From a candidate division WWE3 bacterium RAAC2_WWE3_1 (GTDB taxonomy: Bacteria > Patescibacteriota > WWE3 > UBA101185 > UBA10185): 64,000 nt of DNA. A program made the translations under genes and the position numbers. Location: contig CP006914.1 in the NCBI GenBank assembly GCA_000503835.1, positions 529,680 to 593,679 on the forward strand. The letters run 5' to 3'. The notes under the pieces are model-generated. The model saw nothing but the letters and a program-made list of their open reading frames with translations. It was not told the origin of the DNA and ran no database searches. This document shows, one piece after another, positions 11,701 to 27,821 of the stretch. How positions within the stretch are numbered: position 1 is the stretch's first letter; every line of letters begins with the position of its first letter.

Positions 11701-14700
11701 AACAACCGGTACCGGAAATGTGGTCTTTTCAGACTCTCCAGTACTAACAACTCAGGCCATGGTTCCTCTAATAGTCGGCGGATCATCGCCCACATCCGTC
11801 CTTACCCTTAAATCCACATCAGGAACCGGAACGACGGACGCCATCGTATTCCAGGTGGGAACAAACGGCGGTACAGAGGCCATGAGAATATTAAATAGCG
11901 GAAATATAGGGATTGGCACCACCTCCAACGCTTATAAACTATTCGTGGACGGATCGTTAAATGCTACTTCCCTGTATCTTTCGGGTTCTCAGGTAACATC
12001 AAGTGCCACAGAACTAAATATACTTGACGGAGCTACCCTTTCCACAACAGAGCTTAATCTTTTAACCGGAAGAAGCGGAACACTGCTTGATTCCGGTAAC
12101 GTGGGAACATACGCCACAACAGCAGTTACCGCAGGTTCAGGTCTATCGGGGGGTGGTACAACCGGCGCCCTAACCATTAATATCGGAGGCGGAAACGGAA
12201 TAACAATAAATGCTGATGATATAACGATAGATGCGACAACCGCTGGGACGACAACCGTCAAATCCAATAATTCCGGTCTTGAGGTGGTGTCAGACGGTCT
12301 CAGACTTCTTGGGGGGTGTGCGAACGGAGAAGTTTTAAAGTGGAATTCAAGTACTTCGGTTTGGTACTGTGCAGTTGACACAACAGGTTCCGGTACAGCT
12401 ACAATCGCAGGATCCGGAATAGCCGGACAATTAACCTTCTTCACCGGCTCCACGGCGGTATCCGGTTCAAATAACCTGTGGTGGGATAACACAGGCGGAA
12501 ATCTTGGAATAGGGACATCAGGACCTGTAGCTAAACTCGAACTTGCCGGCTCCGCTGATACTGAACAATTCGTAATAAAAGCGAACGCCACACAATCTAA
12601 TACGCAGCCACTCATTCAACTGCAATCCCCAACGGGCACTCCTCTGCTCTCCATCACTTCAGATAATGAAACGAACGCCTTCTTTGGATACAGAGCAGGT
12701 TCCGCTAATACATACGGATCTGCAACATCCGGTGGGGGCAACACATTCATAGGCTATCTTTCGGGATCTTCAAATAATGCAGGTTACCAAAATACATCTG
12801 TAGGTGGAGAGGCCTTGTCTAGAAACACGACAGGAGTCTATAATAGCGGACTTGGTTATCAATCACTTTACTCAAACACAACGGCAAACTATAACACCGC
12901 GGTTGGGTTTCAAGCACTTTACTCAAACACACTCGGGAGTGCTAACATCGGGGTTGGCTTTGGCGCAGGAGTATACAACCAAACGGGTACCGGAAATTTG
13001 TTTTTGGGACATAAGGCCGGGTACGGGGGAGCAGCAAGGACAGGCTCAGACTTCAACGCAGCGGTGGGTTACGAAGCGGGATACAGTCTATCCGCAAACT
13101 CCGATAGCAACATATTTTTAGGTTACAGAGCAGGATACAATGAAACAGGTTCTAATAACTTGTATATAGACAACACCTCATCTCCTGCAGATACAGCCTT
13201 TATTTATGGTGACATGGGCCTCGATCGATTAACCTTTAACGCTAATGTTGGAATAGGAAAAACATCCCCCACAGCGTGGCTTGATGTCGCAGCAGCAACA
13301 ACAGCTAAACCTTCCATAAGGGTAGCAACGGGTGCTGAACCTTCCTCCCCTGTAACCGGAGACATATATAACAATGGAACGTCCCTTTACTACTACAATG
13401 GAACAGCCTGGAAGGATCTTACGGCTACAGGAGCAGGTGGTGGTCTTGCTGGCTCAGGAATCGCCGGACAACTCACATTTTTCACCGGATCCACAGCAGT
13501 ATCCGGTTCAAACAATCTATGGTGGGATTCCGGTAACTCAAGACTGGGAATCGGAACATCCGCTCCTTTAACCTCAATCGATGTATCCGGAACCACGTGG
13601 CTTAGAGGTCTTTCGGCAAATTCGGGACTATTTGTAAACCAGTCAGGATATACCGGCATAGGTACAACAAGCCCAATCTCGAAACTCCAGGTGGAAGGAC
13701 CCACATGGCTTAGAGGCGGCACTGGTGTCGCCGGAGCAAAAGGTGTCTATATAGATGCCAACTCGAATCTCGGTATCGGAACAACAAATCCCGGGTATTT
13801 ACTCACCTTAAATACCACAACCGATCAGCACGCAATAGCTTTCCTCGAAGGAACAACAAACAGGGCGTTCTTCGGACTGGCCGCATCTGCAGGTCAGTTT
13901 GCTGCAGGTTCTCGTGATAACGACCTTATTTGGAGATCTGAAAGTGGCAGTAACCAGCTTTGGACCACAGACGGAGGTACTACCGCAATGGTGACCCTTA
14001 ACTCAGGGGGTAACCTGGGAATAGGAACAACAGCTCCTTTGGCATGGTTCGATGTTAAGGGCGCTACAACATCCGAGGCATCTATAAGAGTGAGAAGCGG
14101 GACCCAGCCTTCGGCGCCTGCAACGGGCGATATTTATAACGACGGCGACCAGCTCTTCTTCTACAACGGAACTGCATGGCAGGATCTTGGGGCGACGACC
14201 GCGGGGGGCGGCGGTATCGCAGGATCCGGAATAGCCGGACAATTAACCTTCTTCACCGGCTCCACGGCGGTATCCGGCTCAAACAACCTGTTCTGGGATA
14301 CTTCAAACTCAAGGCTGGGAATAGGAACATCCGCTCCTGCGTCACAACTCGCACTGCTTAGCACTGACACAACAAACGGTCAATTTAGAATAGGCTACGA
14401 TGCCTCTAACTATACTAAGTTCACAACCGACTCCGTCGGTAATCTGACCCTTAATAACAACGGCACCAACGTGGTCAAGTTCGGCGCTACCAACACCGAA
14501 TTCTATACACCTACAACCTTCTCGGCCGCAGGCGATGTGTCTATGGCCTACGACCTCATATTTACAAATGCGACAAGCTCTGAGCTCAGATCATACGGGC
14601 CTCTCAGCATAACGGCGGGAGAAACATACGGCAGCAGCAACCTCACGCTTAAGACCTATAACTCAGGTGACATTGTGGCTGACCTAACAGGAACAGGCAG

Positions 14701-16144
14701 GCTCAGACTAAACGGGGCGGATACCACACTGCTCTTCGACACAAAGACTGCCACCGATACCGACTACTGGATGGGTGTAATAGACGACGCCGGCGGCGAC
14801 GATGACGACATGTTCGCCATAGGAAAAGGTCTTTCCAACTCGTCAAATATTTACCTCTCGATAGCTTCCTCAGGATGGGTCGGCTTAGGATTGCCAGCTA
14901 CAAGTGCTCCTACAGCAACACTTGACGTAAACGGCGGAGCAAGATTTAGAGGAATCGGTTCCAGCGCTTATGTCGGAGCTGTGAATTATGCAACGGGCGG
15001 TGTATTAACTACAGCAACATCAGACGCCAGGCTCAAGACAAACGTTACAACAATAGACAATGCCCTCGACAAAGTAACAAGACTAAGAGGCGTCACATTT
15101 AACTGGCTCGACCCCAACGCACCTAAACGTATGACAGGTATGATCGCCCAGGAAGTTGCTGATGTTATGCCCGAGCTTGTGTTCCAAAACCCGAACGATG
15201 GTTACTATGGATTGTTCTACGGCGAAACAACAGGCTTATTAATTGAAGCCACAAAAGAGCTAAATACAAAACTACTTGCCTTAGAATCAGGCCTAACAAC
15301 CTACACAACAACCGCTGACGGAACCCTTAGTACAATAACTACAAGCACCGACAGCAACCTGACCAAACTTAACACCCTGGAAACTGACGTGACCGCCCTG
15401 CAAACAGAGGTCCTGTCCATAAAAGAGCTGTTAGCTCAGGCCGCTCCTCAAAGCTCACAAAGTAGCGCTACTGTAGCCACTACACCCGAAGGAATGCTAG
15501 CCGAGATGTACAAAGTCTTTGAAGACCTCAAAGCGTTCGTCGCGGCTCTCGGTCTATCAAACAATGGAAACGCCCTCGCGGTATCAACCGACCTTAACGT
15601 ACTTGGCGACACCACCTTATCTAACCTAACCGTAACCGGTGATATAAGTGCAGGATTAATGAAACTCGACACACTCAACAATGTGTTCGAGGTGGCCGGT
15701 CCTTCCTGCTACAACGAGCTTACCGGTACAACCAATACAACTCTCTGCACCGATCAAACAATGTACCTCCAGAAATCACTGGCAGGAAATGTTGACGTCC
15801 TCAACGGAGCCTTGGTTGTGGAACCCAACGGAAACGTTACCGTCAAAGGCACTTTACTGGCTCAGAAAGTGGAAACCACAGATATATCAACCGAAAACGT
15901 GACTATAAAAGCTGCTTCAAAGTCGGTCGGAAGCGGGACAATAACCTCAGGACAAACTCAAATTGTGATAGATAACACACTGATAAAGACAGGGTCGAAG
16001 GTATTCGTGACCGCCACATCCAGTACTAACGGGCAGGCTTTGATTGTTAAAGAAAAACTTGATGGGGTGTCGTTCACGGTAGCCGTCGATCGACCGGTCC
16101 CGGGAGATGTAGCCTTCGATTGGTGGATTGTAAATGTTGAATGA
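2720..16144 (+). CDS. Giant (4474 aa) membrane-anchored surface protein: N-terminal MerR/excisionase-type HTH, one TM helix, tandem phage-tail-fibre-like repeat modules, YadA-like repeats, a parallel beta-helix block and an internal peptidase-S74 intramolecular chaperone (self-cleaving) domain
   Basis: A 13.4-kb ORF with no stop codon. Approximate amino-acid positions of the named elements:
- aa 25-72, HTH: VKVSEAANLLSVSSSTLRRFEAEGKITSRRLDNNYRVYDISEV.
- aa 146-162, hydrophobic helix: IAGVSFAAVLILIGL.
- Seven or more copies of a ~150-aa module: TSSATELNILDGA..ELNLL.GRTGTLVDS.NV..YA.T...AGSGL.GGTGPGATT...G.G.GI...AD.I..D....G.T.V.S.NSGLE......GLRLLGGC.
- IGIGTT.P...LDV.G motifs typical of tail fibres.
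- nt 7380-7870 and 12640-13200: YadA-head-like N.A.G..A repeats.
- nt 10100-10760: beta-helix repeats (NNTI.NSS...I, ISITNNNISSG).
- nt 15020-15260: SDARLKTNVTTIDNALDKVTRLRGVTFNWLDPNAPKRMTGMIAQEVADVMPELV, matching the S74/CIMCD consensus of tail spikes and endosialidases. Confidence 0.85.
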   Translation: MEISAQNNKKNYSKSDSNVFRSEGYVKVSEAANLLSVSSSTLRRFEAEGKITSRRLDNNYRVYDISEVARFKKILNEEKQTRKKSYVTVNDTPVFQNKTPVKAHGFTWPKINASFPKINETYSNVSQNFEQHSTLKAAAKFFKTAKIAGVSFAAVLILIGLSENVRFTDNVIEILSFTMSRQIETGEKGYEVIGLTLGSKDKVTSYIYNINVPANFRRNVNIDETLRVTGLSSLLGGIETQDADANLGTGTLTTGRIDMTGEASLNNLLVINDVTETTLEEFIDINGDVVGTGLNDVKVVGLGGIEVGDLDTDDGNILMIEGGSWASLPTSSITSLGTITTGVWNGTPIAPGYGGTGLSSITAGSILIGGSGNTMSTLAIGSANQTLISSGSAPVWTNSDAFVSSYAWLLTGNTGTDSTTDFIGTTDNTGLTIRTNDVERVTIAADGNVGIGGTDPQFSLHVGNGSSSAAWIVGQQESGYIEGDLEVAGTIYGTFVGPITTVGYQPNAVFYSDSAGTMTTDNTLLSFNETTAVLLVNGTLNTSLFKIGGTSVTSSATELNILDGALISTTELNLLDGRIGTLVDSSNVSNYAITSVVAGSGLIGGTGPGATTLHVGVGNGISIAADSIAIDTTTTGVTAVSSSNSGLEASSDGLRLLGGCGSNQILSWDATGQVWKCASVSGIGGITGAGASTQVAFWDSASSLTGNNSLWWNNTSTRLGIGTSAPLYTLDVNGTARIGSLSAGSGNSIVLQNAGVLETRDVDSRVWGTSLVDGTSLTANYLARISDANTLITGMVYDNGSFVGIGTTQAGYLLNIGGSLNTSALFIAGSAVTSSATELNILDGVTATTSEINMLAGRTGTLVDSNNVGSYAVTAITAGSGLTGGTGPGATTINIGAGNGLIVSADSIAIDSATTGLTAVTSSNSGIEVTADGIRLLGGCSLNQVLAWDNTSQTWKCSSVSGLGGVTGTGTDNYLARWDGTSALQNSSVFAADSGNVGIGTSGPGYNLDVAGSANVSNLFIAGNLVSSSATELNILDGALVSTAEINLLDGRTGVLLDTSNVSTQLSTWDQLASDDLTTATGFSGDVSGPYNDLQIQTGVVGANELAATSVSAGTYGSTSGVSTFTVDADGRLTSAGNTTLSGAGITDNTIEEVDLEVTNAGVNGYVLTYDNATGGFTWVSSAVMGTNYWQRIGSNLVPLTVTDYVTTNGRIGAGTTSPSYTLDVNGTARIGSLSAGSGNSIVLQNAGVLETRDVDSRVWGTSLVDGTSLTANYLARISDANTLITGMVYDNGSFVGIGTTGNSGYILNVAGSANVSNLFLAGTLVSSSATELNILDGATLSTTELNLLTGRTGTLVDSNNVGSYAVTAITAGSGLTGGTGPGATTINIGAGSGISLAADSITLDTDTTGTTSVTSNNSGLEVTGSGLRLLGGCSDTQILKWNSTASVWYCSSDSTGTSGTATIAGSGLATQIAFFSGSTSISGSNNLWWDNTGGNLGIGTSGPAAKLELAGSADTEQFVIKANATQSNTNPLIQLQSSTGTALLDISTDSVENVFIGRLAGSSNTVGAGSSGMYNTFIGSGAGDNNSAGYQNSVLGAYALFGNTYGINNTSMGVYSLFSNTTGNDNVSLGFKAGQYSTTGSYNVFLGTSAGFGVNTTQRALSSYNVAIGNEAGYSLSANSSSNIFLGYRAGYNETGSNKLYIDNGSAPGGSAFIYGDMSSDLLTFNANVGIGKTSPTAWLDISAATTSKPSIRVASGTAPSSPVTGDIYNNGTSLYYYNGTAWQDLGATGTSGTAAIAGSGLATQVAFFSGSTSISGSNNLWWDSGNSRLGIGTSGPAYPLSVLSTAPDVADGRVADVDGTLTSSTNDQQGFKTSVTVTPGASTSKIYSGMQLSLSGNSNTRLTNAIFRGVEGYISYSGSSGILGTGIGGRFRVNNSSTGTITNAYDLYLATPTNTGTITNTYGLYIDSMTAGTQPNKAFGIYQAGSGDRNYFAGNVGLGTTNPASILQVAGNILPSADDTYDIGSSALRWRDVYIGPASLHIGTNQSEATIKYLVGQSSLGFDLDANGVYEFEMGADGKFGIGTTNPNFMLDIAGSASVNTLFLGGSAITATAAELNRLSGGSGNVVDTGNVGSYAVTAITAGSGLTGGTGPGATTINIGAGSGISLAADSITLDTDTTGTTSVTSNNSGLEVTGSGLRLLGGCSDTQILKWNSTASVWYCSSDSTGTSGTATIAGSGLATQVAFFSGSTSISGSNNLWWNSTDSRLGIGTSAPLTSLDVSGTTWLRGLSANSGLFVNASGSIGIGTTNPQYNLHVVGNLGLTGDFYLLGAPSSPSTTEGTMYYDTDDDRLKVYANGKWQSDRTTATVIVAASDSKNKEKADIVADGTNDETDIENAVTNYLPATGGNVVLLDGTYNIGADGIDITKSNVTLTGAGNATVVKRVADSTAVDGTITLGDGGTTAVTNVKITELQVDGQKSAYSSPNNVAIFFNQRVTQSQIEGTYIHDIYSYGIYLKGTTQSVSDNTIHNNTIINSSNPIYVDAGSTSTRAHNISITNNNISSGVAGIYINYAKYFKVSDNKFSNYQYILSVDNSEYGVISGNTTDGSTITGVNTAMVISLGASNYNTIVSNYIYGGSGMGGSAAIYVDNTSTGNYIAGNTLGNNKITDSGIGTIIQQDDRFLVNGYLKATSLYLSGTQVTSSATELNILDGATLSTTELNLLTGRTGTLVDSNNVGSYAVTAITAGSGLTGGTGPGATTINIGAGSGISLAADSITLDTDTTGTTSVTSNNSGLEVVADGLRLIGGCTDTQILKWNASTSMWYCAADSTGTAGSATIAGSGVVNQVSFFSGSTSISGSNNLWWDNSNTRLGIGTSGPLTALDVSGTTWLRGLSANSGLFVNTSGYVGIGTTNPTAPLSVGTGSAFAVSSTGAVTSGSWNGAAISVPYGGTGLTSIAAGSVLAANSVDTLSVITSTSGLKVLQNSAGTTSWATTTGTGNVVFSDSPVLTTQAMVPLIVGGSSPTSVLTLKSTSGTGTTDAIVFQVGTNGGTEAMRILNSGNIGIGTTSNAYKLFVDGSLNATSLYLSGSQVTSSATELNILDGATLSTTELNLLTGRSGTLLDSGNVGTYATTAVTAGSGLSGGGTTGALTINIGGGNGITINADDITIDATTAGTTTVKSNNSGLEVVSDGLRLLGGCANGEVLKWNSSTSVWYCAVDTTGSGTATIAGSGIAGQLTFFTGSTAVSGSNNLWWDNTGGNLGIGTSGPVAKLELAGSADTEQFVIKANATQSNTQPLIQLQSPTGTPLLSITSDNETNAFFGYRAGSANTYGSATSGGGNTFIGYLSGSSNNAGYQNTSVGGEALSRNTTGVYNSGLGYQSLYSNTTANYNTAVGFQALYSNTLGSANIGVGFGAGVYNQTGTGNLFLGHKAGYGGAARTGSDFNAAVGYEAGYSLSANSDSNIFLGYRAGYNETGSNNLYIDNTSSPADTAFIYGDMGLDRLTFNANVGIGKTSPTAWLDVAAATTAKPSIRVATGAEPSSPVTGDIYNNGTSLYYYNGTAWKDLTATGAGGGLAGSGIAGQLTFFTGSTAVSGSNNLWWDSGNSRLGIGTSAPLTSIDVSGTTWLRGLSANSGLFVNQSGYTGIGTTSPISKLQVEGPTWLRGGTGVAGAKGVYIDANSNLGIGTTNPGYLLTLNTTTDQHAIAFLEGTTNRAFFGLAASAGQFAAGSRDNDLIWRSESGSNQLWTTDGGTTAMVTLNSGGNLGIGTTAPLAWFDVKGATTSEASIRVRSGTQPSAPATGDIYNDGDQLFFYNGTAWQDLGATTAGGGGIAGSGIAGQLTFFTGSTAVSGSNNLFWDTSNSRLGIGTSAPASQLALLSTDTTNGQFRIGYDASNYTKFTTDSVGNLTLNNNGTNVVKFGATNTEFYTPTTFSAAGDVSMAYDLIFTNATSSELRSYGPLSITAGETYGSSNLTLKTYNSGDIVADLTGTGRLRLNGADTTLLFDTKTATDTDYWMGVIDDAGGDDDDMFAIGKGLSNSSNIYLSIASSGWVGLGLPATSAPTATLDVNGGARFRGIGSSAYVGAVNYATGGVLTTATSDARLKTNVTTIDNALDKVTRLRGVTFNWLDPNAPKRMTGMIAQEVADVMPELVFQNPNDGYYGLFYGETTGLLIEATKELNTKLLALESGLTTYTTTADGTLSTITTSTDSNLTKLNTLETDVTALQTEVLSIKELLAQAAPQSSQSSATVATTPEGMLAEMYKVFEDLKAFVAALGLSNNGNALAVSTDLNVLGDTTLSNLTVTGDISAGLMKLDTLNNVFEVAGPSCYNELTGTTNTTLCTDQTMYLQKSLAGNVDVLNGALVVEPNGNVTVKGTLLAQKVETTDISTENVTIKAASKSVGSGTITSGQTQIVIDNTLIKTGSKVFVTATSSTNGQALIVKEKLDGVSFTVAVDRPVPGDVAFDWWIVNVE
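6660..8230. repeat. Copy 1 of a ~1.6-kb segmental duplication inside the giant gene: repeat unit, AKLELAGSADTEQFVIKANATQSNT block, YadA-like repeats and a GDIYNNGTSLYYYNGTAW block
   Basis: The domain order and many sequence stretches recur at 11950-13570. For example, 7200-7340 is about 93% identical to 12490-12630. The protein segment NIFLGYRAGYNETGSN.LYIDN...FIYGDM..D.LTFNANVGIGKTSPTAWLD appears at both sites. Confidence 0.8.
11950..13570. repeat. Copy 2 of the ~1.6-kb segmental duplication inside the giant gene
   Basis: See copy 1 at 6660-8230. The modules are collinear and carry patches of near-identity at the DNA level. Confidence 0.8.
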
Positions 16145-16229: not shown

Positions 16230-19200
16230 ATGAAAGAGGGATTAAATATTAAAGAAAAAATGAAGAGGGTTCGCAGGAAAATAGTCGGTTTTGGCAAATT
16301 CTCCACACCCTATAGAAAACATGATGTTACTTCTATTTTTGAGGAACGCGAGAGGTCTAAAGACACAGGTAGTAGTATAAAAGCATTTTCAAGCAAAAAA
16401 CTTCAACTCCTATACATAAAAATTATCGCCTTCTTTACGGCTCGAAAACAGAATTGGAGGAATTTCTATACTCAAGAACTGCCTTTTTCAAGAATTTTGC
16501 GTTTTCTAAAGTCGCGCTACCCCACTTACAAAAAGTATCTTGTACCCGTCTCAGTTGGAATGCTTATAGTATTGCTTCCGGTTATCTGGCTGTCTATAAA
16601 AAATCCCGACAAAGTTCGGGCAGATTGGTTTGACGACAACTGGCACTATAGAAAAAAAATTACCATCACAAATAACGGGACGGCTGACGCTGATAAAAAA
16701 ATCCTGTTCGAAACCGACACCTCTGCTCTAATCTCCGGGTCTAAAATGCAAAACACCTGCGCTGACGCCAGGTTTACCGATGTCAATGGTCAGGTATTGA
16801 GATATTACATTGATGCGGCCACCGGAGCGTGCAACACGGTATCCACTGACTTTTATGTCCTTCTACCCACTATAAACGCCGGATCCACGGTTATTTACTT
16901 CTATTACGCAAATACCTATGTAGAGGCGGTTGCTGAAACAAGTCAGTTTTCGCAGGCAACGTTTAGCCCGGCCGGAAGCTCTACAGGCAACGAGTCTGTC
17001 GGCCCCGGACCGGCTGCATACTGGAAGTTTGATGAGGCTTACGATCAGAAGGAGAATACAAAGATTGAACAGGAACTGGAGATTATGACCGTCGGCGAGT
17101 ATTCAACAAGCAGTTATACCGCTTCAATCCCAATTGATATTACCTATAGTGCCGCCCAAAATCTCACAGACTACCAGATTCCTGTTACCTTTTCATATCA
17201 ATCGGGAATGAATACGGATTTTTCGGATATTAGATTTTACAACTCTGCCGGTACAAAACTTAATTATTGGATAGAGTCAAAAACGGACAGTACTACCGCA
17301 AGTGTATGGGTTAAGGTACCGCTAATCTCCGGCAGTACAACGACTACAATCTATCTAAGATACGGAAATTCCGGCTTTACATCCGAAAGCTCACTGGCCA
17401 ACACATTCACGAGCAACTCCGTTCAATTGTTGACAAGTAGATGCCCCAGTTCCAGCACGGCATGCTATTTTTCCGACTCGCATACAGAGTTCGACACTGT
17501 AGCCAGCAGTGTTCAGAACCTCACAAGCGGTTTTGCCGTCGACGGGAGCGGCAGTGTTACTGCGGTTAACAACTCATCAAATCCTTATGGAAGTTCAGAT
17601 AACTATTTTTCCCGATACCGTTTCCTTTTTGTCGCGGATACATCAGGAACTCATGGTTTTTTGGTCAACAGCGATGACGCGAGCGAGCTAAACCTCAGAG
17701 ATGCCATGGATACCGACACTACCCATACTGTACCGGCCTATTGGTATGGAGGCCACGGTAACGCGGGAACGTGCGCAACCAGCGGCACGACCGGTACCAG
17801 ATCCATAAACTCCGGTGAATCCGTTTGGCTGGATTACAGACAGACTGAGGTCGGAAGTGGACAACTGGCACAACTGTGCATCTCTGAGCCGGCCGGAAGC
17901 TATGCAGTGGTAAATACGACAAATTTTCCGGGACAGCTTTACGCTAGGAGTGTGATCACAACCGGATCGGAGCCATCGGTATCCGTTGGTGCTCCACAAC
18001 AAGGTGGATATACGTTCATGCCCACGAATAACTCCCTTGGAATTGTCGGTTATAACCCCTCTCTTTACAGCTCGGTAAGTTCAGTAAATCTGGAAATCGT
18101 TGCCAGTACGGATAACGGAACCACTTGGACTAAATATCGGACAACGGAATCGGGTAATAATCTTTCCTCCTCCACCTACACGGTCAGAGTAAAAGCAGGG
18201 GTCGGTTCGAACACACCACAAGCCGCGTTATATGACACTACAAGTGGCACATCTTTCCTACCGCTGAATTTTGGCACTACGTCGGACACCGAGGTTTCGA
18301 TCAAGAACGCACGGCTTATTATAAGACAGGAAAGTGGCGTCGGAATAACACAAACTGAGACGAAGACGGAGATGGGGAGTTATGAGGCCGGCACAGCAGC
18401 TACATATACTCAACAAACTGACAAAAAAATATACAACTACGATTCAACTAAGTATAACCCCGCCCCTACCAATTTTTTCGAAACTACAGCTAAGGTTACA
18501 AATGACAGTGTTGGGGTAGAACAGCAAATCCCTATAACAAATACGCCTCCTCTGACTACACGTACTACTTCCTACACCCCAACAGACAGTTCACTTGGTG
18601 TCGGCTATTGGGATGCAGACAAATACCCCGGAGGTACCGTTTATCTCGAGGTTGACCACTATAACTATGATTACTCGGATCCGTATATAGCCATATATAC
18701 TGTGTCAGGAACTTATGTGACCGAGTTTCAGGTCAGCCCCGCATCTCAAGGATATATACGATATAGAAGTCCGGCTTTAACTCTAACCGACGATACTGCG
18801 TACACAGTGCGATGGAAGGCTTCAAACGCAGCCCATCCCCAGACACTCTACGCCGCCCGTTTCATAGTTGTTCAGACCGATACCACAAAGATTACCGGAA
18901 CAGAGACACAGGTTGAAATCGGGGCCAATACAACCTCAACAGCAACCTCCTATACAAACTTGACTGACAAAAAAATATGGCGATACGACTCATCCAAATA
19001 CTCTCCCGCTCCAACTACCTATTTTGAAGCGGTGCTATCAAACGACACCGCTGGTCAGACCTCTTACGTAGCTCTTTATACGGATGGGGCAGCTTGTTCC
19101 TCCCAGGTAACGGGATCCGAGATTAGCGTTACGGGGACTACCTGGTCATGGGTAAGAAGTAACAGTATTTCCCTTTCAAGCGGAACCGACTATACGGTTT

Positions 19201-22200
19201 GTATAAAAACCAGCGCAAACACCGCAAAAATGACTAACGCAAAGATAATAATGGATCAGTCAGATGCAACAAATGGTGTAAGGGATGTTGAGCTGTACCA
19301 ATCACAGGTAAATGCCATAATGACCGATGCTGACACCACCTATACAAGCTCATACAAGTTCACAGGATTCAATCCCGGTATTCACGCCAGCCAAATAACG
19401 TTTGAGGGAGGAACTTTCAACTACTTCTATGAAAGTACAATGAAGACATCGGCGGGGACAGGTTATGCGAGGCTTTATAACAGCACCGCAGGAACCGCAA
19501 TAACAAGTGGCGAGATTACGACATCCTCCACCTCATATACAAGGATTAGAAGCGGCAATATAACAGCAAGCATGCCAAGTGCAACTGGATCTTTCCTCAT
19601 AGCGCAGGATCTGGATACACAGGCCAAAAACTCGGCCACCAACACCACCTCTTTGGCAAATTCGTGGATCATAGTACAGGTGTCTAATCTTTCAAACACA
19701 TCAAATACTGTCTATGCCGATCTATACAACCTTACCGACGGTACATCCGTCACCGGATCTGAGGTTAGTACGGCCGCAGTACAGACCATCACATACCTGA
19801 GAAGTTCCCCGATAACACTTACGACGGGAAAAGAGTACGTTGTGAGAACAAAGACCAGTAGCGCAGACAGCGTACCATATTACACATATAACGCAAAGAT
19901 AATAATGGATCAGTCAGATGCAACAAATGGTGTAAGGGATGTTGAGCTGTACCAATCACAGGTAAATGCCATAATGACCGATGCTGACACCACCTATACA
20001 AGCTCATACAAGTTCACAGGATTCAATCCCGGTATTCACGCCAGCCAAATAACGTTTGAGGGAGGAACTTTCAACTACTTCTATGAAAGTACAATGAAGA
20101 CATCGGCGGGGACAGGCTATGCGAGGCTTTATAACAGCACCGCAGGAACCGCAATAACAAGTGGCGAGATTACGACATCCTCCACCTCATATACAAGGAT
20201 TAGAAGCGGCAATATAACAGCAAGCATGCCAAGTGCAACTGGATCTTTCCTCATAGCGCAGGATCTGGATACACAGGCCAAAAACTCGGCCACCAACACC
20301 ACCTCTTTGGCAAATTCGTGGATCATAGTACAGGTGTCTAATCTTTCAAACACATCAAATACTGTCTATGCCGATCTATACAACCTTACCGACGGTACAT
20401 CCGTCACCGGATCTGAGGTTAGTACGGCCGCAGTACAGACCATCACATACCTGAGAAGTTCCCCGATAACACTTACGACGGGAAAAGAGTACGTTGTGAG
20501 AACAAAGACCAGTAGCGCAGACAGCGTACCATATTACACATATAACGCAAAGATAATAATGGATCAGTCAGATGCAACAAATGGTGTAAGGGATGTTGAG
20601 ATAGTGCACGCGGCCAACGCATATAAATATACCGACAGCGATTCCACATATACCCAGATTTATAACTTCAATCTGACCCCTAACTACAACATGAAAGGGG
20701 GAAACTTCGTTTATTTCTTCGAATCAAACTTGAAAACCACCGGCGGGACAGCATACGCAAGATTGTATAACTCCTCAGCTGGCGCCACCATTACCAACTC
20801 GGAAATTACCACAAACTCCACATCGCTTGTGCGTGTGCGAAGTGCTGAGTTAAGTTCCTACTTACCTACAGCTGCTGACTCTTTAGATGTACAACTACGG
20901 AATAGTGCAACCAACACAACAACCACAACAGGATCTTCTTTAATTATTCAGGTGACCAACCTTGGGGATCCAAACACCTACATTGCTTTATATTCCAATG
21001 CTACCAGTTGTTCTAGTCAAGTACCTGGAAGTGAAATTTCCACAAAACCATCAGATGGGACAAAACGAGTGGTGTCACAGTCAATAAGTCTGTCTGACGG
21101 GGAATACATGGTTTGTACAAAGGCTTCAAGCGGCGTGACAATAACTTTGTATAACGCCAAAATCAATCACCAACAATCAAACGCACAAGGCATAACCAAC
21201 CTCAGAACTTTCAGATCACTAAACACCGACCTTGAGACCCAAGCGACCGCTACATATACCAGTAAAAACGGGCTAAACTTCTATGACCCGGCGCAGTTCA
21301 CAGGAACGGTCACGGGCTCGTTTGATGCAACAGTATTAGCGACCGCCACAACCGCCTATGCCCAGCTATACAATGTCACAACCTCGGGAGCTCTAACTGA
21401 AACCGAAGTGTCCACTACTAGCACTTCTTATGTCAGACTGCAAAAATCTATTACCACTCTTCCGGCCTCCGAGTCAACCCTCGATGTTCAGATAAAAAAC
21501 AGCAGTACTAATACAACAAAGACCACCGCGTCCTGGCTGGTACTTGATATAGAAAATATTCTGCCCGCTATCGTGCACGATTCAACATCAAATAAACTTA
21601 ACGGTCAGCTGGAAGGAACTACATGGGAATCAGAACAAAACTGCATCTCGGGATCGTGCCTGGAATTCGACGGAGTGGATGATTATGTAAAGGTGACCGA
21701 CAACCCCAGGCTGGATTTTGGGGCATCTGACAGTTTCACTATAAGTATGTGGTTCACGCTTCCCTACTCCACAACAAACAGCAGGGGCCTTATTTCAAAA
21801 TACGAATCAACGGGAGCGGATGGTGGTTACCAGATCCGAGTCGACGCAAACGGCAAGGTCGTGGTCGAAATTTCCGATGATAATACAACTTTTCCTAAAG
21901 ATTCGGTGACAAGCTCGGTTAGTTATAGAGATAGTAAGTGGCACCATGTGGCCGCCGTAAAGGACGGTGCTACCAGTTTGAAACTATATATGGACGGTGT
22001 GCTTGAGGGAACGGATAGTTCCATAGCCACTGCCGGTGCTTTATCAAACAACGATCTACTTTATATGGGAGATGCCAATGACGGCACGACCGGCAATTGG
22101 CTAGGACACATCGACGAGGCAAAAATATATCGCTATGCGAGAACGGCACAGGAAATAGAAAACGAACTTTACGGAACAAATCCGGGCGGATCAACGTCGT

Positions 22201-25200
22201 TGGGTGAAAACGCCGCCACAAAAATAAATAACGGTTTACTGGCCCAATGGAAGCTGGAAGAAACAACTGCCGATTCATGCGGAACAGGAGTCACAGACGG
22301 TTGTGATAATACAAATAACGGATATGACGGGTATTGGAACGGAAATCCGACTTCCGGACAGGGAAAAATAGGAAACGGTCTCACGATGGATGGTACCGGC
22401 GATGCGCTTAGGGTAACACCGGAGGGTGCCAAATTACCGAACACATCTTTAAGCACCAGGATACCCATAACTTTCGACAACTCTGCTTCAGCCGAGGATC
22501 TGACCAATTTCCCCGTGCTGGTTAAGCTAAATAGCTCAAGGATAAATTACTCTAAAACGCAGGATGCCGGTCAGGATATAAGATTTACCGACAGTGACGG
22601 AACCACTCTACTGAACTATGAAATAGAAAAATGGGATGAGACGGGCACTTCCTTCGTTTGGGTAAAGGTTCCCAATATACCTGCAGGGGCGACAACCGAC
22701 AAAATTTACATGTACTTTAATGATACAAGTTTATCTGACGGTCAAAACGCCAGCGGTGTTTGGAACTCAAACTATGTGGTCTCTCAGCATATGAAAGAAA
22801 CCACAGGAGTAACGACCTACGATTCCACATCTAACGCAAACAACGGCACAAAACTGGCCGCCACCGAACCTAACCCTACCACCTCCGGACAAATCAATGG
22901 TGCCCAGAGTTTTGACGGCAGTAATGACTACATAACATTGTCAAGCAGTGTATCGGGAAGTATCGATCAAATTACGGTCTCGGCATGGGTTTATGCTAAT
23001 ACCCAAGGTGAAGCAAGCGATTACCGTGCAGTTGTTAGCGAAGCATTCACAGGTGACAATAACGTAGAATTTGAACTTTATCTCACGGGTGCAAACCATA
23101 ACTTATCGGCGGGATTCTACTCCGGAAGTTGGACCACGGTTTCCGACACAGTGGCGTTTCCGCTAAACCAATGGGTACATGTTCTTGCTACATACGACGG
23201 TCATTACATCAAGGTGTATAAAGATTCGGTACTTGTAAAAACTTCTACCGATTTAAACAAACCCCTACCCAACGGAGCCAACGGATGGAGGATAGGAAGG
23301 CGCCATGATTCAGGAAATGCGGCAAATATGTGGGATGGCTTAATTGATGAGGTTCGTATCTCAAATACCGTGCGGTCCGGTGATTGGGTCGAGGCAATAT
23401 ACAAATCAGAGAAAGACACCCTCAACACATATGGAGCCGAACAACCCTATATTCCGAACTTCAACGTGTCCGATCAGGTGTCTGTTACCGGTTGGTACTA
23501 CCCAACAACCCTGGACAACACCACAAAATACCTGACATTCGGCAGTGGCACGACAAAGTCAATGTACATCAAAACTGATTCCGTCAATGCAGGAAAACTA
23601 CTCTTCTCTTCCAACGGAACAAACGAGGGTACATCCTCAACAACACTTTCAACAAATAACTGGTACCAGATCACACTTGTCGGAAATTCCACGGAGACCA
23701 AGCTCTACATAAACGGAGAACTGGATTCCACGGTAACTAACACAACCGGTATTTCAAATTTGGAGTCCTTCTATATAGGTAACAACGACAGTCTTTCCAC
23801 AGGCGGCTGGATAGGAAAAGTGGACGAGGTCAAGTTATACAATACCGCACTTTCCGCTTCGGAAATTGCCGCGGGTTATGATACACCAAAAAGCCCGCTT
23901 GCCTACTACACCTTCGATCAAAAAAATGCGACCGGGGTATTTGATATTTCCACAAATAATAATGCAGGTACGTGGGGCGGTTCCACAACAAACCGTTATA
24001 CCCTCGGAAAATTCGGGAGTGCGGGAATATTTGACGGTACCTCGGATTACGTCACCACATCCGACACCCCGTTCGACATCACAGGTGATTTCACCCTTGA
24101 ATCCTGGATAAACCTCGGCACCGCAGGTTCCGCACCCTACAATATAATAAGCAAGCACGGAGCAGCGGGTTCCGGAGGTTATTCGCTGTTCGTAGATGCA
24201 AACGGAGCCGTAAACTGTCTTACCGATAATGGAACAGCCGAAATAACAAGCAAAACCGCTAATTCCTCCGTAACTTCATCGTCCGGATGGATCCACGTTT
24301 CAGCCGTTAGGAATGGAACTTCATGCAAAATTTATATAAACACCGAAGACAGAACCTCTACCGCAGGAACGCATACTTCCTTATCCGCCAACAGCTCGAC
24401 CCTGCGTTTGGGCTCGAATGTTTCCGGCTCCGGTTTCTTTAAAGGTTATATGGACGAGGTCAAGATATACGACTACGCCCTTGCCCCCAAGACCTTGTTA
24501 ATTGACTATAACGCCGGCCACCCTGTACCCGGCTCCCCTGTGGGAAGCGCCAAAGGCTGGTGGAAAATGGATGAGGGCTATGATAACACCGCCCATAACA
24601 CAGGCTCGTCAGGCAGTACGAACAACGGAACAATTACCGGCGCCGCATGGTCGCAGGACGGAAAATTCGACCGCGCCTTGGACTTTGACGGTACTTCAGA
24701 TTACGTTACCGTCGCGACAGGTGAAATTGTCGACCAAAACACCGTTACAATCGAGGCCTGGATCTACCCCACGAGCGTAAACGGAGCCCATGATTTTACG
24801 ATACTTGCCCAAAACGATAACGGCGCGGGATATACAACCCACAACTTCGGAATTTCAGGCTCGTCAGGCAAACTCTTATACGATAACGAACTTCCTGCAA
24901 GTGGCGTCCTTAACAGCAATACATCCATAACGGCGAATCAATGGCAGTATGTGGCCGTTGTAAGAAATGCCGATAGCGTAACTTTCTATTTGAACGGTGT
25001 GGCCGACGGAAGCGGGACGGGCGAGGCGAGATCGAGTTCCGCTGCCATAGACAATACCCTGATAGGAGCACGGTACTACTCGGCTGCCCCCCAACATCAG
25101 TTTGCAGGGAAGATTGACGAGGTAAAAATCTACAATGTCGCCCTAACCGCTTCACAAGTGGCTCAGGCATACAACCGCGGAAAGGCAATGTCCTTTGGCG

Positions 25201-26504
25201 CCCTATCTACAGACACAGCCGGTTTACCGTTAAACTCAGCCAAATCCGCATACTGCGTTCCGGGAGATGCAACAACCTGCAACGCCCCTGTTGCCGAATA
25301 TAATTTCGATGAAAAACAGGGTTCATATATAAACGATGTGTCGGGAAACGCACATCAAGGTACTCTCGCAAACAGCCCCGCGTGGACGAACGGCAATATC
25401 GGAGGAGCCGTGGAATTTAACGGTACTAACAACTACGCCACGATTGCGACAGGCGAACTTGTCGCCCAGGATGCCATCACGGTCGAAGCCTGGATCTATC
25501 CCGGAAAAGTCACCGACGCATCTAATGCCTTCACCATTTTCGTTCAAAACGATAGTGGCGCCGGAAACGCTACTCACCTTTTCGCCATTGATAACACGAA
25601 CGGCAAGCTCCTGTACGACAACACCGGTCCGGCCGGCGGAGCTATAAACGGCAATACTGCCCTCACTCCAAACACCTGGAATCACGTGGTCTTTACCAGA
25701 AGCGGTACTTCCGTAAACTTCTATCTTAATGGTATGAACGACGGCTCCGGTACCGGTGAAAGCAGAGCAAGTTCGGCAGACGTAGATAACACTTTGATAG
25801 GAGCACGGTACTACTCGGCCGCCCCCCAGCATAAATTTATAGGAAAGATCTCACAGCTTACGGTGTTCGACTACGCCAGAACCGCATCTCAAATTGCCTG
25901 GGACCACGGCAAAGGCAGTCCGTCACTTTGGTGGAAACTTGACGACTGCCAGGGTCTTGTGGCGCAGGATTCGGGTGTAAATAATTTCGACGGCACTATA
26001 ACAATCGGCGCATCTCTTTCCAACACCTCGGAAGGTTCCTGCTCTTCAGGTCAAAGCAGTCAGGCCTGGAACAACGGGACATCGGGTATGATTAATTCGA
26101 GCCTTCACTTTGATGGTACTGACGACTATATTACCCGGGGAACAGGTCCCTCGACGTATTCAATGAGTCTTTGGGTAAAACCTTCTTCCACAACACAGTC
26201 AATAGTAGATCTGGACGGGGGCACACATACTCTAACTGTCTCCTCAGGAACAATATCAGCCGGCGGTTTCTCTTCTCCCACTATTTACGTGGACGGATAC
26301 CCGACAACGACACTATCAGATACAAACTGGCATCAAATAACCGTTGTAACAAGTACCCCCTTTAACACGGGCACCATCACCTTAGGTAAAATAAACACGG
26401 CTTACTACACAGGACAAATAGATGAATTTAAACTCTTCTCCTACCCTCTGACCGCCATACAGGTCAGGGACAACTTTGCAAAGGGTGTGGCAACCTTCGA
26501 CTAA
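16230..26504 (+). CDS. Giant (3424 aa) membrane-anchored surface protein with two DUF2341 domains, about 12 novel ~100-aa repeats, and seven LamG/Laminin_G_3 (concanavalin-A-like) domains
   Basis: A 10.3-kb uninterrupted ORF starting 85 bp after the first giant gene.
- A basic N-terminus is followed by a TM helix (LVPVSVGMLIVLLPVIWLSI).
- nt 16620-16920: DUF2341-like sequence (DWFDDNWHYRKKITITN...DARFTD..GQVLRYYID...FYVLLPTINAGSTVIYFYYAN).
- nt 22470-22740: a second DUF2341-like sequence (PITFDNSA..LTNFPVLVKL....DIRFTDSDG..LNYEIEKWD..GTSFVWVKVPNI.....IYMYFND).
- nt 21600-26460: seven jelly-roll units with FDG.DDYV...SMW..WHHVA.V.DG....LY.DG....G.IDEV.IY..AL motifs.
- nt 18200-21550: repeated A.LYN.T.G..VTGSE.ST...................Y.V..K.S....AKII units. 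Confidence 0.85.
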   Translation: MKEGLNIKEKMKRVRRKIVGFGKFSTPYRKHDVTSIFEERERSKDTGSSIKAFSSKKLQLLYIKIIAFFTARKQNWRNFYTQELPFSRILRFLKSRYPTYKKYLVPVSVGMLIVLLPVIWLSIKNPDKVRADWFDDNWHYRKKITITNNGTADADKKILFETDTSALISGSKMQNTCADARFTDVNGQVLRYYIDAATGACNTVSTDFYVLLPTINAGSTVIYFYYANTYVEAVAETSQFSQATFSPAGSSTGNESVGPGPAAYWKFDEAYDQKENTKIEQELEIMTVGEYSTSSYTASIPIDITYSAAQNLTDYQIPVTFSYQSGMNTDFSDIRFYNSAGTKLNYWIESKTDSTTASVWVKVPLISGSTTTTIYLRYGNSGFTSESSLANTFTSNSVQLLTSRCPSSSTACYFSDSHTEFDTVASSVQNLTSGFAVDGSGSVTAVNNSSNPYGSSDNYFSRYRFLFVADTSGTHGFLVNSDDASELNLRDAMDTDTTHTVPAYWYGGHGNAGTCATSGTTGTRSINSGESVWLDYRQTEVGSGQLAQLCISEPAGSYAVVNTTNFPGQLYARSVITTGSEPSVSVGAPQQGGYTFMPTNNSLGIVGYNPSLYSSVSSVNLEIVASTDNGTTWTKYRTTESGNNLSSSTYTVRVKAGVGSNTPQAALYDTTSGTSFLPLNFGTTSDTEVSIKNARLIIRQESGVGITQTETKTEMGSYEAGTAATYTQQTDKKIYNYDSTKYNPAPTNFFETTAKVTNDSVGVEQQIPITNTPPLTTRTTSYTPTDSSLGVGYWDADKYPGGTVYLEVDHYNYDYSDPYIAIYTVSGTYVTEFQVSPASQGYIRYRSPALTLTDDTAYTVRWKASNAAHPQTLYAARFIVVQTDTTKITGTETQVEIGANTTSTATSYTNLTDKKIWRYDSSKYSPAPTTYFEAVLSNDTAGQTSYVALYTDGAACSSQVTGSEISVTGTTWSWVRSNSISLSSGTDYTVCIKTSANTAKMTNAKIIMDQSDATNGVRDVELYQSQVNAIMTDADTTYTSSYKFTGFNPGIHASQITFEGGTFNYFYESTMKTSAGTGYARLYNSTAGTAITSGEITTSSTSYTRIRSGNITASMPSATGSFLIAQDLDTQAKNSATNTTSLANSWIIVQVSNLSNTSNTVYADLYNLTDGTSVTGSEVSTAAVQTITYLRSSPITLTTGKEYVVRTKTSSADSVPYYTYNAKIIMDQSDATNGVRDVELYQSQVNAIMTDADTTYTSSYKFTGFNPGIHASQITFEGGTFNYFYESTMKTSAGTGYARLYNSTAGTAITSGEITTSSTSYTRIRSGNITASMPSATGSFLIAQDLDTQAKNSATNTTSLANSWIIVQVSNLSNTSNTVYADLYNLTDGTSVTGSEVSTAAVQTITYLRSSPITLTTGKEYVVRTKTSSADSVPYYTYNAKIIMDQSDATNGVRDVEIVHAANAYKYTDSDSTYTQIYNFNLTPNYNMKGGNFVYFFESNLKTTGGTAYARLYNSSAGATITNSEITTNSTSLVRVRSAELSSYLPTAADSLDVQLRNSATNTTTTTGSSLIIQVTNLGDPNTYIALYSNATSCSSQVPGSEISTKPSDGTKRVVSQSISLSDGEYMVCTKASSGVTITLYNAKINHQQSNAQGITNLRTFRSLNTDLETQATATYTSKNGLNFYDPAQFTGTVTGSFDATVLATATTAYAQLYNVTTSGALTETEVSTTSTSYVRLQKSITTLPASESTLDVQIKNSSTNTTKTTASWLVLDIENILPAIVHDSTSNKLNGQLEGTTWESEQNCISGSCLEFDGVDDYVKVTDNPRLDFGASDSFTISMWFTLPYSTTNSRGLISKYESTGADGGYQIRVDANGKVVVEISDDNTTFPKDSVTSSVSYRDSKWHHVAAVKDGATSLKLYMDGVLEGTDSSIATAGALSNNDLLYMGDANDGTTGNWLGHIDEAKIYRYARTAQEIENELYGTNPGGSTSLGENAATKINNGLLAQWKLEETTADSCGTGVTDGCDNTNNGYDGYWNGNPTSGQGKIGNGLTMDGTGDALRVTPEGAKLPNTSLSTRIPITFDNSASAEDLTNFPVLVKLNSSRINYSKTQDAGQDIRFTDSDGTTLLNYEIEKWDETGTSFVWVKVPNIPAGATTDKIYMYFNDTSLSDGQNASGVWNSNYVVSQHMKETTGVTTYDSTSNANNGTKLAATEPNPTTSGQINGAQSFDGSNDYITLSSSVSGSIDQITVSAWVYANTQGEASDYRAVVSEAFTGDNNVEFELYLTGANHNLSAGFYSGSWTTVSDTVAFPLNQWVHVLATYDGHYIKVYKDSVLVKTSTDLNKPLPNGANGWRIGRRHDSGNAANMWDGLIDEVRISNTVRSGDWVEAIYKSEKDTLNTYGAEQPYIPNFNVSDQVSVTGWYYPTTLDNTTKYLTFGSGTTKSMYIKTDSVNAGKLLFSSNGTNEGTSSTTLSTNNWYQITLVGNSTETKLYINGELDSTVTNTTGISNLESFYIGNNDSLSTGGWIGKVDEVKLYNTALSASEIAAGYDTPKSPLAYYTFDQKNATGVFDISTNNNAGTWGGSTTNRYTLGKFGSAGIFDGTSDYVTTSDTPFDITGDFTLESWINLGTAGSAPYNIISKHGAAGSGGYSLFVDANGAVNCLTDNGTAEITSKTANSSVTSSSGWIHVSAVRNGTSCKIYINTEDRTSTAGTHTSLSANSSTLRLGSNVSGSGFFKGYMDEVKIYDYALAPKTLLIDYNAGHPVPGSPVGSAKGWWKMDEGYDNTAHNTGSSGSTNNGTITGAAWSQDGKFDRALDFDGTSDYVTVATGEIVDQNTVTIEAWIYPTSVNGAHDFTILAQNDNGAGYTTHNFGISGSSGKLLYDNELPASGVLNSNTSITANQWQYVAVVRNADSVTFYLNGVADGSGTGEARSSSAAIDNTLIGARYYSAAPQHQFAGKIDEVKIYNVALTASQVAQAYNRGKAMSFGALSTDTAGLPLNSAKSAYCVPGDATTCNAPVAEYNFDEKQGSYINDVSGNAHQGTLANSPAWTNGNIGGAVEFNGTNNYATIATGELVAQDAITVEAWIYPGKVTDASNAFTIFVQNDSGAGNATHLFAIDNTNGKLLYDNTGPAGGAINGNTALTPNTWNHVVFTRSGTSVNFYLNGMNDGSGTGESRASSADVDNTLIGARYYSAAPQHKFIGKISQLTVFDYARTASQIAWDHGKGSPSLWWKLDDCQGLVAQDSGVNNFDGTITIGASLSNTSEGSCSSGQSSQAWNNGTSGMINSSLHFDGTDDYITRGTGPSTYSMSLWVKPSSTTQSIVDLDGGTHTLTVSSGTISAGGFSSPTIYVDGYPTTTLSDTNWHQITVVTSTPFNTGTITLGKINTAYYTGQIDEFKLFSYPLTAIQVRDNFAKGVATFD
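19241..20600. repeat. Near-perfect 654-bp (218-aa) in-frame tandem duplication inside the second giant gene: two full copies plus about 52 bp of a third
   Basis: Unit 1 (19241-19894) and unit 2 (19895-20548) are identical apart from roughly one synonymous change (ggttatgcg versus ggctatgcg). The first ~52 bp of the unit recur at 20549-20600 before the sequence diverges. The identical spurious antisense ORFs at 19475-19699 and 20129-20353 confirm the period of 654. Confidence 0.9.
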
Positions 26505-26510
26505 CGCTCC

Positions 26511-26539
26511 CATTGACATGCCCCGATTTTCTATCTAAA
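26511..26539 (+). promoter_or_regulatory. Candidate promoter (TTGACA-17-TAAACT) for rplJ-rplL
   Basis: The sequence cattgacatgccccgattttctatctaaactac lies directly after the giant-gene stop codon. Confidence 0.4.
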
Positions 26540-26559
26540 CTACCCCTGTATAGTGGCCA

Positions 26560-26766
26560 AAGACAGCAAGGGCTTCCGCGCCGGGGTAACTTAGCGCAAA
26601 AGCTTAATGCAGAGCTTAAAAATCTTGCCGAGGTAAACCTTAATTCGTATATTTTGTGGTTTATAACTCACCGTCTCTTGGTGGGTTTCTTTTTTCGGCG
26701 AAAACGGCATATACAAAAACCGTCCTTACCGATAAGAAACACTTTAGGAGGTGTATACCTAACAAA
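26560..26766 (+). promoter_or_regulatory. rplJL 5' leader with a hairpin plus U-tract attenuator (L10-leader-like)
   Basis: The ~230-nt untranslated leader contains ctCACCgtctcttGGTGggtttctttttt at 26683-26712, a stem followed by a T-run. The RBS ttaGGAGGtg follows, then the ATG at 26767. Leaders of this type are known to be autoregulated by L10(L12)4. Confidence 0.35.
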
Positions 26767-27294
26767 ATGGGAAAAATTAAAAATCTGGAAACAGTAAAAA
26801 GCTTAAAGGAAAAGGTCGCCAGGGCTAAGTCTATCGTTTTTGCCGATTACCGCGGACTTTCTGCAGGTAACGCCAATGACCTTAGAGCTAAATTGAAAGG
26901 CGAAAATTCCGAGATGCTTGTTATCAAAAATACCCTTCTTAAGGTCGCTCTGGAAGAAGAAAAAATCAAGACGGACGACATTAAAAAGGACCTGGAAGGT
27001 CCCACGATGGCTGTATTTTCGTTCGAGGATCCCATTGCGTCCATAAAGACGATTTTTGAATTCGCAAAGAAACTGGAGCTTCCTAAGATTAAGTCAGCCT
27101 TAATCGAGGGAGTCTACGCCGACTCGGCAAGAGTGGAAGTAATAAAAAATATTCCTTCGAAAGAGGTTCTTCTCAGCCAGGTAGTCGGAAATTTGAAGTC
27201 ACCTTTGAGCGGATTTGTTGGCGTTTTAGGCGGCGTACACAGAAAATTTGTATACGCAATGGATGCTATTGCTAAGAAAAAGGCAACTAACTAA
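26767..27294 (+). CDS. rplJ: 50S ribosomal protein L10
   Basis: [44 protein letters not shown]... shows the canonical L10 N-terminus. AGGAGG lies 15 nt upstream. The ORF-track start at 26656 lacks an RBS and adds a non-conserved extension. Confidence 0.9.
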
Positions 27295-27331: not shown

Positions 27332-27751
27332 ATGGCAGACGAAAAAGACATAAAGTTAAGCGGAGACGCGCAGAAAGTGATGGACATAGTCGAAAAAATG
27401 ACCGTCCTCGAACTTAACGATCTCGTAAAAGCTCTTGAAGAAAAATTCGGAGTTACAGCGGCAGCTCCTATGATGATGGGAGCGATGATGCCCGCAGCCG
27501 GTAACGGTGGCGAGCCCGCCGAACCTGTAGAAGAGAAAACAGAGTTCGACGTAGTTTTAACAGAAGCCGGAGCGAACAAGATCTCAGTTATCAAATCGGT
27601 TAGAGAGATCAACCCCGCGCTCGGTCTTGTAGAAGCTAAGAGTCTCGTAGAATCTGCTCCTAAAGCAGTTCTCGAAGGAGCAAAGAAAGAAGCAGCCGAG
27701 GCTGCAAAGAAAAAGCTTGAAGAAGCTGGAGCTAAAGTTGAGTTAAAGTAG
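27332..27751 (+). CDS. rplL: 50S ribosomal protein L7/L12
   Basis: [41 protein letters not shown] is followed by an Ala/Pro/Glu hinge and a C-terminal domain ([60 protein letters not shown]). Confidence 0.9.
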
Positions 27752-27755
27752 TATT

Positions 27756-27821
27756 CATTTGAGTACAAAAGTATAATCATTTGAGTACAAAAGTATAATC
27801 ATTTGAGTACAAAAGTAGTAT
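27756..27821. repeat. 3 x 22-bp perfect or near-perfect tandem repeat (tcatttgagtacaaaagtataa) directly 3' of rplL
   Basis: The 22-bp unit occurs three times (third unit ends gtagta instead of gtataa). Each copy ends in the motif aaagta, as does the rplL 3' end. Confidence 0.85.

Follow-up and report, generated by a model that had tools for sequence, protein, structure and literature searches.

A 64,000-nucleotide (nt) stretch of the genome of the candidate division WWE3 bacterium RAAC2_WWE3_1, here called the window, contains a giant gene (giant gene 2) in which a unit of 654 base pairs (bp) stands twice in tandem. We consider it probable that this is a genuine copy-number-variable coding repeat in a giant, putatively membrane-anchored surface protein of a WWE3 (Katanobacteria) bacterium of the candidate phyla radiation (CPR). 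The evidence, read from assembled sequence, consists of the architecture of the repeat itself, the occurrence of one-copy and two-copy alleles in the same population, repeat boundaries that are conserved between species, and the concerted evolution of a short stretch that flanks every unit. All unlabelled coordinates count from the first letter of the window. Its GalT-like protein, encoded at 27897-28841 on the minus strand, is identical to AHB40494.1 of RAAC2_WWE3_1, whose genome of 878,109 bp comes from the Rifle aquifer (Kantor et al. 2013, PMC3812714).

Repeat architecture and copy-number alleles

Base-by-base comparison of the sequence reveals an exact direct repeat of period 654 over 19235-20600. 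Each unit can be divided into a 58-bp stretch, H, and a 596-bp remainder, X. If L stands for the left flank and Y for the rest of the next unit, the window reads L-H-X-H-X-H-Y (Table 1). The three H copies are 100% identical, and the identity of the repeat stops sharply at 19234/19235 and at 20600/20601. A first-pass annotation of the sequence had recognised the near-identical tandem pair and the partial third copy at its end, while setting the left edge 6 bp too far to the right (19241 instead of 19235) and giving the third copy a length of about 52 instead of 58 bp. It had also noted one synonymous difference between the units, and this holds: they agree at 653 of 654 nt, and the sole mismatch (19463/20117) lies in a third codon position, GGT against GGC, both coding for glycine. 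The C is private to the window among all assemblies examined. Given this difference, the copies in the window must either have some age or include a strain variant.

As 654 equals 3 x 218, the repeat is in frame within the open reading frame (ORF) 16230-26504, and residues 1003-1220 correspond to residues 1221-1438. Identity at 653 of 654 positions is beyond chance, because the neighbouring unit of the same array (amino acids (aa) 1439-1641) shares only 47% of its protein sequence with the duplicated unit and 48% of its codon-aligned DNA past the 58-bp H. Past H, blastn found no match between the duplicated unit and the next one. Tandem Repeats Finder missed the 654-bp repeat, the longest period it handles being 500.

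Table 1. Coordinates of the repeat and related features of giant gene 2 in the window
Feature	Position	Strand	Description
Giant gene 2	16230..26504	+	3424 aa; N-terminal hydrophobic anchor, DUF2341, all-beta array, LamG
Putative N-terminal membrane anchor	16536..16598	+	aa 103-123, YLVPVSVGMLIVLLPVIWLSI, preceded by basic residues; picked by eye from the translation
406-bp body of the 540-bp-period repeat	18517..18922	+	unit 18383-18922; one in the window
Copy 1 of the 654-bp unit (H and X)	19235..19888	+	T at 19463
H1	19235..19292	+	58 bp; proposed recombination substrate; encodes NAKIIMDQSDATNGVRDVE, the end of a beta-strand and an inter-module linker
Copy 2 of the 654-bp unit (H and X)	19889..20542	+	C at 20117
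H2, middle H copy	19889..19946	+	with its flanks forms the X-H-X junction, diagnostic of at least two copies
H3, third H copy	20543..20600	+	58 bp; opens the next, diverged unit
Y, remainder of the next array unit	20601..21152	+	aa 1458-1641; 46% aa and 48% nt identity to X
Further, more diverged partial unit	21153..21623	+	aa 1642-1798; 34% protein identity to the duplicated unit

Nineteen further contigs from NCBI, ENA, JGI and Logan, for which we use working numbers beginning with L, were found by exact look-ups of the GalT-like protein and of ribosomal protein L10. These assemblies of the same population match the window at about 96-100% identity over the aligned stretches, most of them at 99.8% or above. 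Copy number was called by a k-mer census of the H copies and of the X-H-X junction, from assemblies and not from reads. The one-copy structure H-X-H is present in ten assemblies of this population (L009, L011-L014, L018, L019 and L021-L023), all of which lack the junction and have two perfect 58-bp H copies 654 bp apart. In the same population the junction is found only in the window and in L008 (JGI 3300025309, Ga0209212_1000502), each with three H copies; in L008 both unit copies are identical and both carry the T. Two contigs, L010 and L020, are ambiguous, having a single H copy and an N gap at H1 that leaves the junction unreadable. Polymorphism in the population, which the first-pass annotation had offered as one of several possibilities, is therefore borne out by ten one-copy assemblies and two with the longer form.

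The one-copy contigs also tell something about how they were assembled. L011 (k127) starts at 18796, L022 (k141) at 18782, L023 at 18846, and L012-L014, which belong to GW2011 genomes, at 18824. These starts equal 18922-k+1 for k = 127, 141, 77 and about 100. All six contigs break at the end of the body of a second array, of period 540 bp, and then run unbroken through L-H-X-H-Y. Since k (77-141) exceeds 58, an X-H-X junction of appreciable depth would have branched and broken them, which argues that their one-copy state is not a collapse. By the same reasoning, with k above 58 a contig that contains X-H-X needs reads spanning the junction. On these assembly grounds we consider the one-copy state genuine in those contigs and believe that the one-copy and the two-copy allele both exist in the aquifer; a contig with two copies is best read as having "two or more". 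The Logan unitigs L024-L026 (k=31) begin at 20571, 30 bp before 20601, as expected from a branch between H and Y at this word length, and are uninformative on copy number.

A separate observation concerns three 2015 drafts, L009, L013 and L014 (GCA_000998145.1, GCA_000995235.1 and GCA_000999385.1). Each is missing a different piece of 32-51 bp directly past H3 and another inside X. The missing pieces map to 19334-19387 and 20601-20639 of the window and their loss breaks the reading frame. Faulty local assembly or error correction at the repeat is the probable cause.

Concerted evolution and the proposed origin of the duplication

Scanning metagenome and genome collections, we found the orthologous gene in a sister species, whose giant protein is about 75% identical in aa and whose GalT-like protein is 94% identical. 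Here too both states occur. L005 (WWE3 RIFOXYC2_FULL_42_13; L002 is identical) has one unit between perfect 59-bp repeats spaced 654 bp apart, whereas in L001, a JGI contig of 540 kb, and in L003 the unit occurs twice with 100% identity and a third H follows; the flanks of the three are 98-99.9% identical to each other. H of the sister species lies at the same codons as H of the window, and 13 of 57 nt differ between the species. Within each genome of either species all H copies are identical, and X and Y of one genome are only 48-50% identical. Independent evolution of the flanking H copies cannot give this pattern, and the H copies must hence evolve in concert. A third lineage (protein P0001 on L017), whose aa identity is about 50%, shows a pair of identical 633-bp units followed by 43 bp of a third, beyond which the sequence diverges; its left repeat boundary is that of the window.

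The same architecture in three lineages, together with the concerted evolution of H, marks a recurrent and conserved unstable site, and the assembled sequences point to repeated expansion and contraction with homogenisation and not to a one-off event. The very recent event that the first-pass annotation named as one of three possibilities needs to be recast accordingly: the copies are near-identical, as it stated, but the site is recurrently unstable in three lineages. Its proposal that recombination between two short homologous stretches created the duplication is supported, as the predicted precursor H-X-H exists in the ten assemblies of the same population and in L005/L002. In a test of the duplication model at the join point, the join proved to be H2 itself, with no bases gained or lost, and the period is 654 in one-copy and two-copy alleles alike. 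As to direction, a deletion from two copies to one is as likely as a duplication from one to two.

The following course of events would account for these data. In the basic allele, L-H-X-H-Y, X plus one H would make up a 218-aa unit of two all-beta modules, and the identical H stretches would start successive units of an otherwise diverged array. Misaligned homologous pairing of H copies between sister chromosomes, perhaps through RecA, or slippage of the replication template could convert this allele into that of the window. Because such pairing would be in register, every product would be in frame, with a whole folded unit gained or lost. Once two copies were present, 712 bp of perfect homology would ease further gain and loss. 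Cycles of gain and loss, and gene conversion limited to the homologous tract, would keep H and X identical in each genome, and since conversion tracts would be unable to pass the homologous block, the boundaries would stay fixed while the lineages diverge. Gain or loss of a unit would probably lengthen or shorten the part that separates the N-terminal anchor from the lectin-like LamG domains at the C-terminus, and may affect fitness.

Several points weigh against this account. The two-copy state of the window itself has no direct read support, and its private C allele at 20117 would also fit a strain single-nucleotide polymorphism threaded through an assembly loop. RAAC2_WWE3_1 is a hand-curated genome whose authors report a few repeat regions that were not completely resolved (PMC3812714). 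An exact look-up of the product of giant gene 2 in a public protein collection found this product not on record. No more than two copies occur anywhere, so that high-frequency cycling is something we infer, and simple reciprocal crossovers do not homogenise the outermost H copies, for which gene conversion must be invoked. A rival view is that the window contains an assembly or curation artefact: the true genome would be H-X-H, the H-X loop would have been traversed twice, and the T and C strain variants of X would have been placed in tandem. That ten of the twelve unbroken spanning contigs show one copy, that the C allele is seen in the window only and that its gene product is not on record all agree with such an error. 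So do the faults of older assemblies right at this place (the gaps of 32-51 bp in L009, L013 and L014 and the N gaps at H1 in L010 and L020), the short-repeat regions left unresolved according to Kantor et al. (PMC3812714) and the standing of tandem repeats as a known source of assembly errors (PMC6868369). However, H is only 58 bp long, and a de Bruijn assembler working at k above 58 could build the X-H-X junction only from genuine reads that cross it. The junction recurs in L008, a JGI contig that is independent but from this population, where the two copies are identical and carry the T. Two copies are likewise found in the third lineage and in two contigs of the sister species, and identical tandem repeats are usually collapsed by assemblers, not expanded. 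We thus regard an artefact as unlikely.

Closer to our preferred account is the idea of an old and stable two-copy state, which would have arisen before the species separated. Gene conversion would have preserved the identity of the copies, the one-copy alleles would be recent deletions and the window would show the ancestral form. This idea departs from recurrent gain and loss in direction and tempo only. Two-copy alleles with the same boundaries in three lineages speak for it, as does the fact that deletion between 712-bp perfect repeats is mechanistically easier than duplication via 58 bp; the single T/C difference also indicates that the copies have had some time to diverge. Yet one-copy alleles are the majority in this population (ten contigs against two) and are present in the sister species too, and the paired copies of L008 and of the sister species match each other at 100%, so that we find the idea possible but doubtful. 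Breakpoints conserved over three lineages and the perfect preservation of H could moreover be read as programmed variation at H by a site-specific recombinase, a diversity-generating retroelement or a cassette switch. This is highly improbable: Pfam scans found no recombinase, invertase or reverse transcriptase among the neighbouring genes, the repeat locus has neither inverted repeats nor a credible antisense ORF, and the products exactly match those of in-register homologous recombination. On the same grounds (no machinery, inverted repeats or credible antisense ORF) a mobile element, a diversity-generating retroelement or invertase and an overlapping antisense gene were rejected as explanations of the locus.

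Recurrent recombination between H copies, the account we prefer, can be carried one step further. The H stretches may be selectively maintained recombination "handles", which would turn the length of this giant surface protein into a reversible contingency trait of an ultra-small CPR bacterium that probably lives attached to a host. We offer this extension as a speculation that is unlikely to hold. If it were true, aquifer populations would respond to hosts or phages by alternating between a short and a long protein, by way of two independent arrays in this one gene, and the perfect identity of H kept across species would be the signature of that selection.

The giant protein, its second array and the gene neighbourhood

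Giant protein 2 has seven LamG (concanavalin-A-like lectin) domains at its C-terminal side, distal to the repeat array. In Pfam it matches Laminin_G_3 over seven stretches (E = 8.6e-146) and DUF2341 over three (E = 5.2e-36), both families passing their thresholds with 480.9 bits (cut-off 27.6) and 123.4 bits (cut-off 23.4). It has the DUF2341 and LamG domains that serve as the criterion for giant extracellular CPR proteins, and it is presumably exposed at the cell surface. No LPXTG motif is present at its C-terminus, and a sortase gene lies 11.6 kb downstream. The central array, at about aa 600-1800, is made up of all-beta repeat modules that belong to no Pfam family.

Each 218-aa unit consists of a larger all-beta module of about 130-150 aa and a smaller one of about 65-70 aa, so the two repeats of about 100 aa that the first-pass annotation gave to each unit were roughly right in number and too even in size. 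An AlphaFold2 model of the unit, built from 11 aligned units, is all-beta with a mean predicted local distance difference test score (pLDDT) of 77. Its least confident segment, residues 6-11 with pLDDT below 50, lies within the part encoded by H, and in this model H marks a module boundary, comprising a strand end and a low-confidence linker. A Foldseek search of the unit against the PDB returned weak matches of jelly-roll type only (E about 2e-3, TM-score 0.3-0.5), among them the Ena pilus subunit 7a02, the TNF-like lectin domain of BC2L-C 2wq4 and nodavirus capsids. Because these matches are weak, no fold family is assigned, and the predicted units can be called "beta-sandwich-like modules" at most.

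Homologues of the protein are named Patescibacteria, Microgenomates or WWE3. A homologue search with aa 860-1800 returned only relatives of at most 53% identity and missed near-identical alleles that the collection does contain, such as the L008 product of 3604 aa; its index may cover very long repetitive proteins poorly. In another family member, P0002, adjacent units within residues 117-545 share an identical 47-aa stretch, TAYADLYNLTDGTQVTSSEVSTTNTTLTRVRSSSITLTTAKDYVVRI, and are diverged in the remainder, which suggests a partial gene-conversion tract.

The 654-bp unit is not the only part of giant gene 2 that varies in number. The 540-bp-period array further upstream has one 406-bp body in the window, two in L008, where the locus is cut at the end so that there are at least two, and three in L018; the 134-bp spacer that separates the bodies in L008 and L018 is absent from the window. 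Many public contigs end exactly at 18922-k+1. Across assemblies the length of giant protein 2 is 3424, 3604 or 3566 aa. In the sister species the 540-bp units can be told apart, and their arrangements (alpha-beta in L005, alpha-beta-beta in L003, an alpha/beta chimera plus beta in L001) are, as judged from their sequences, the products expected from unequal recombination between repeats. As a side observation, L017 (JGI 3300076002, Ga0645779_20762) has three tandem 537-bp units of 99.3% identity at 11419-13009, upstream of its duplicated 633-bp unit, so both arrays are kept near-identical in that lineage as well.

By Pfam scans the neighbours of giant gene 2 include genes for ribosomal proteins L10 and L12, GalT, glycosyltransferases, GH57, a sortase and a PEGA protein. 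The L7/L12 gene at 27332-27751 encodes 139 aa in the window and 97-129 aa in several draft assemblies, which are shorter because pieces of 42-109 bp are missing within 27617-27725; a 22-bp tandem repeat of 3.3 copies lies at its 3' end (27745-27817). An Rfam L10 leader (RF00557, 49.2 bits) at 26539-26702 extends across the GTG at 26656 that automatic gene calling took as the start of L10. Translation probably begins instead at the ATG at 26767, which yields a protein of 175 aa and agrees with the RAAC2_WWE3_1 annotation. For giant gene 1 (2720-16144, 4474 aa), too, an exact look-up of the product found no record. Its aa 27-74 match a MerR-type helix-turn-helix, odd at the N-terminus of a giant protein of extracellular type, and a Peptidase_S74 (endosialidase chaperone) domain lies at aa 4101-4154. 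Internal repeats are numerous, with DNA identities of 63-93%; 6752-7051 and 9068-9367 are one such pair.

Significance and comparison with known systems

Intragenic tandem-repeat polymorphism of a surface protein through recombination is a known and well-established kind of variation, and the finding leaves current concepts unchanged. What it adds is modest: the CPR setting and a 58-bp recombination substrate maintained across species. It puts on record that a giant surface protein with lectin domains differs in length between strains of a CPR bacterium, a group whose surface biology and host attachment are poorly understood, and provides a clean natural example of how very short (58-bp) recombination substrates evolve in concert across species. 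In practice, the copy number given at 19235-20600 and at 18517-18922 by short-read assemblies of this organism is not to be trusted, as many contigs of the population end or carry local errors exactly there. The locus also offers a simple marker of a size suited to the polymerase chain reaction for following WWE3 strains in the Rifle aquifer time series.

In the classical model of bacterial duplication, unequal recombination between short direct repeats gives rise to tandem duplication and amplification. The locus resembles this model in its precursor with two direct repeats, in a join that is the repeat itself without added bases and in a period equal to the repeat spacing, as well as in the instability of the duplication, which reverts by recombination between the long copies. 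It differs in that the repeats are coding, in register and within one gene, and in that the short repeats have been kept identical over species-level divergence.

Two further comparisons extend to other genomes. Intragenic tandem repeats vary between strains of Legionella pneumophila (PMC2639597; reviewed in PMC3899988). There, as here, in-frame differences in repeat number between strains are concentrated in surface or secreted proteins; the WWE3 units, at 654 and 540 bp, far exceed the tens of bp of such repeats and come from metagenome assemblies instead of isolates. Similarly, West-Roberts et al. (2023, bioRxiv 10.1101/2023.11.21.568195) describe giant repeat-rich genes of uncultivated bacteria whose repeats hamper assembly. 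These share with the present locus very long genes, multidomain extracellular proteins and internal repeats, whereas giant gene 2, at 3.4 kilo-amino acids (kaa), is far smaller and comes from WWE3.

A parallel in protein organisation is found in the Periscope proteins (SasG/Aap, Rib, Sgo_0707), variable-length bacterial surface proteins with long, DNA-identical domain repeats whose number varies by strain (Whelan et al. 2021, PMC8201768). Unlike these, the WWE3 protein has one or two copies, and one to three in the second array, set in a diverged array instead of a long homogeneous stalk. Its anchor is apparently an N-terminal membrane segment, in contrast to the C-terminal LPXTG of Periscope proteins, its repeats have an unclassified all-beta fold with no Pfam family, and it comes from an uncultured CPR bacterium. 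Common to both are long tandem repeats near-identical in DNA, each coding for whole domains, whose fold is a prediction in WWE3 (653 of 654 nt in the window, 100% in L008, L001, L003 and L017), and a repeat number that differs among close strains, which in the Periscope class is ascribed to intragenic homologous recombination. In both, the repeat region lies between a cell anchor, putative in WWE3, and putative binding domains. As far as sequence can tell, the locus combines the two features by which the Periscope class is recognised at this level, identical repeats and variation between strains.

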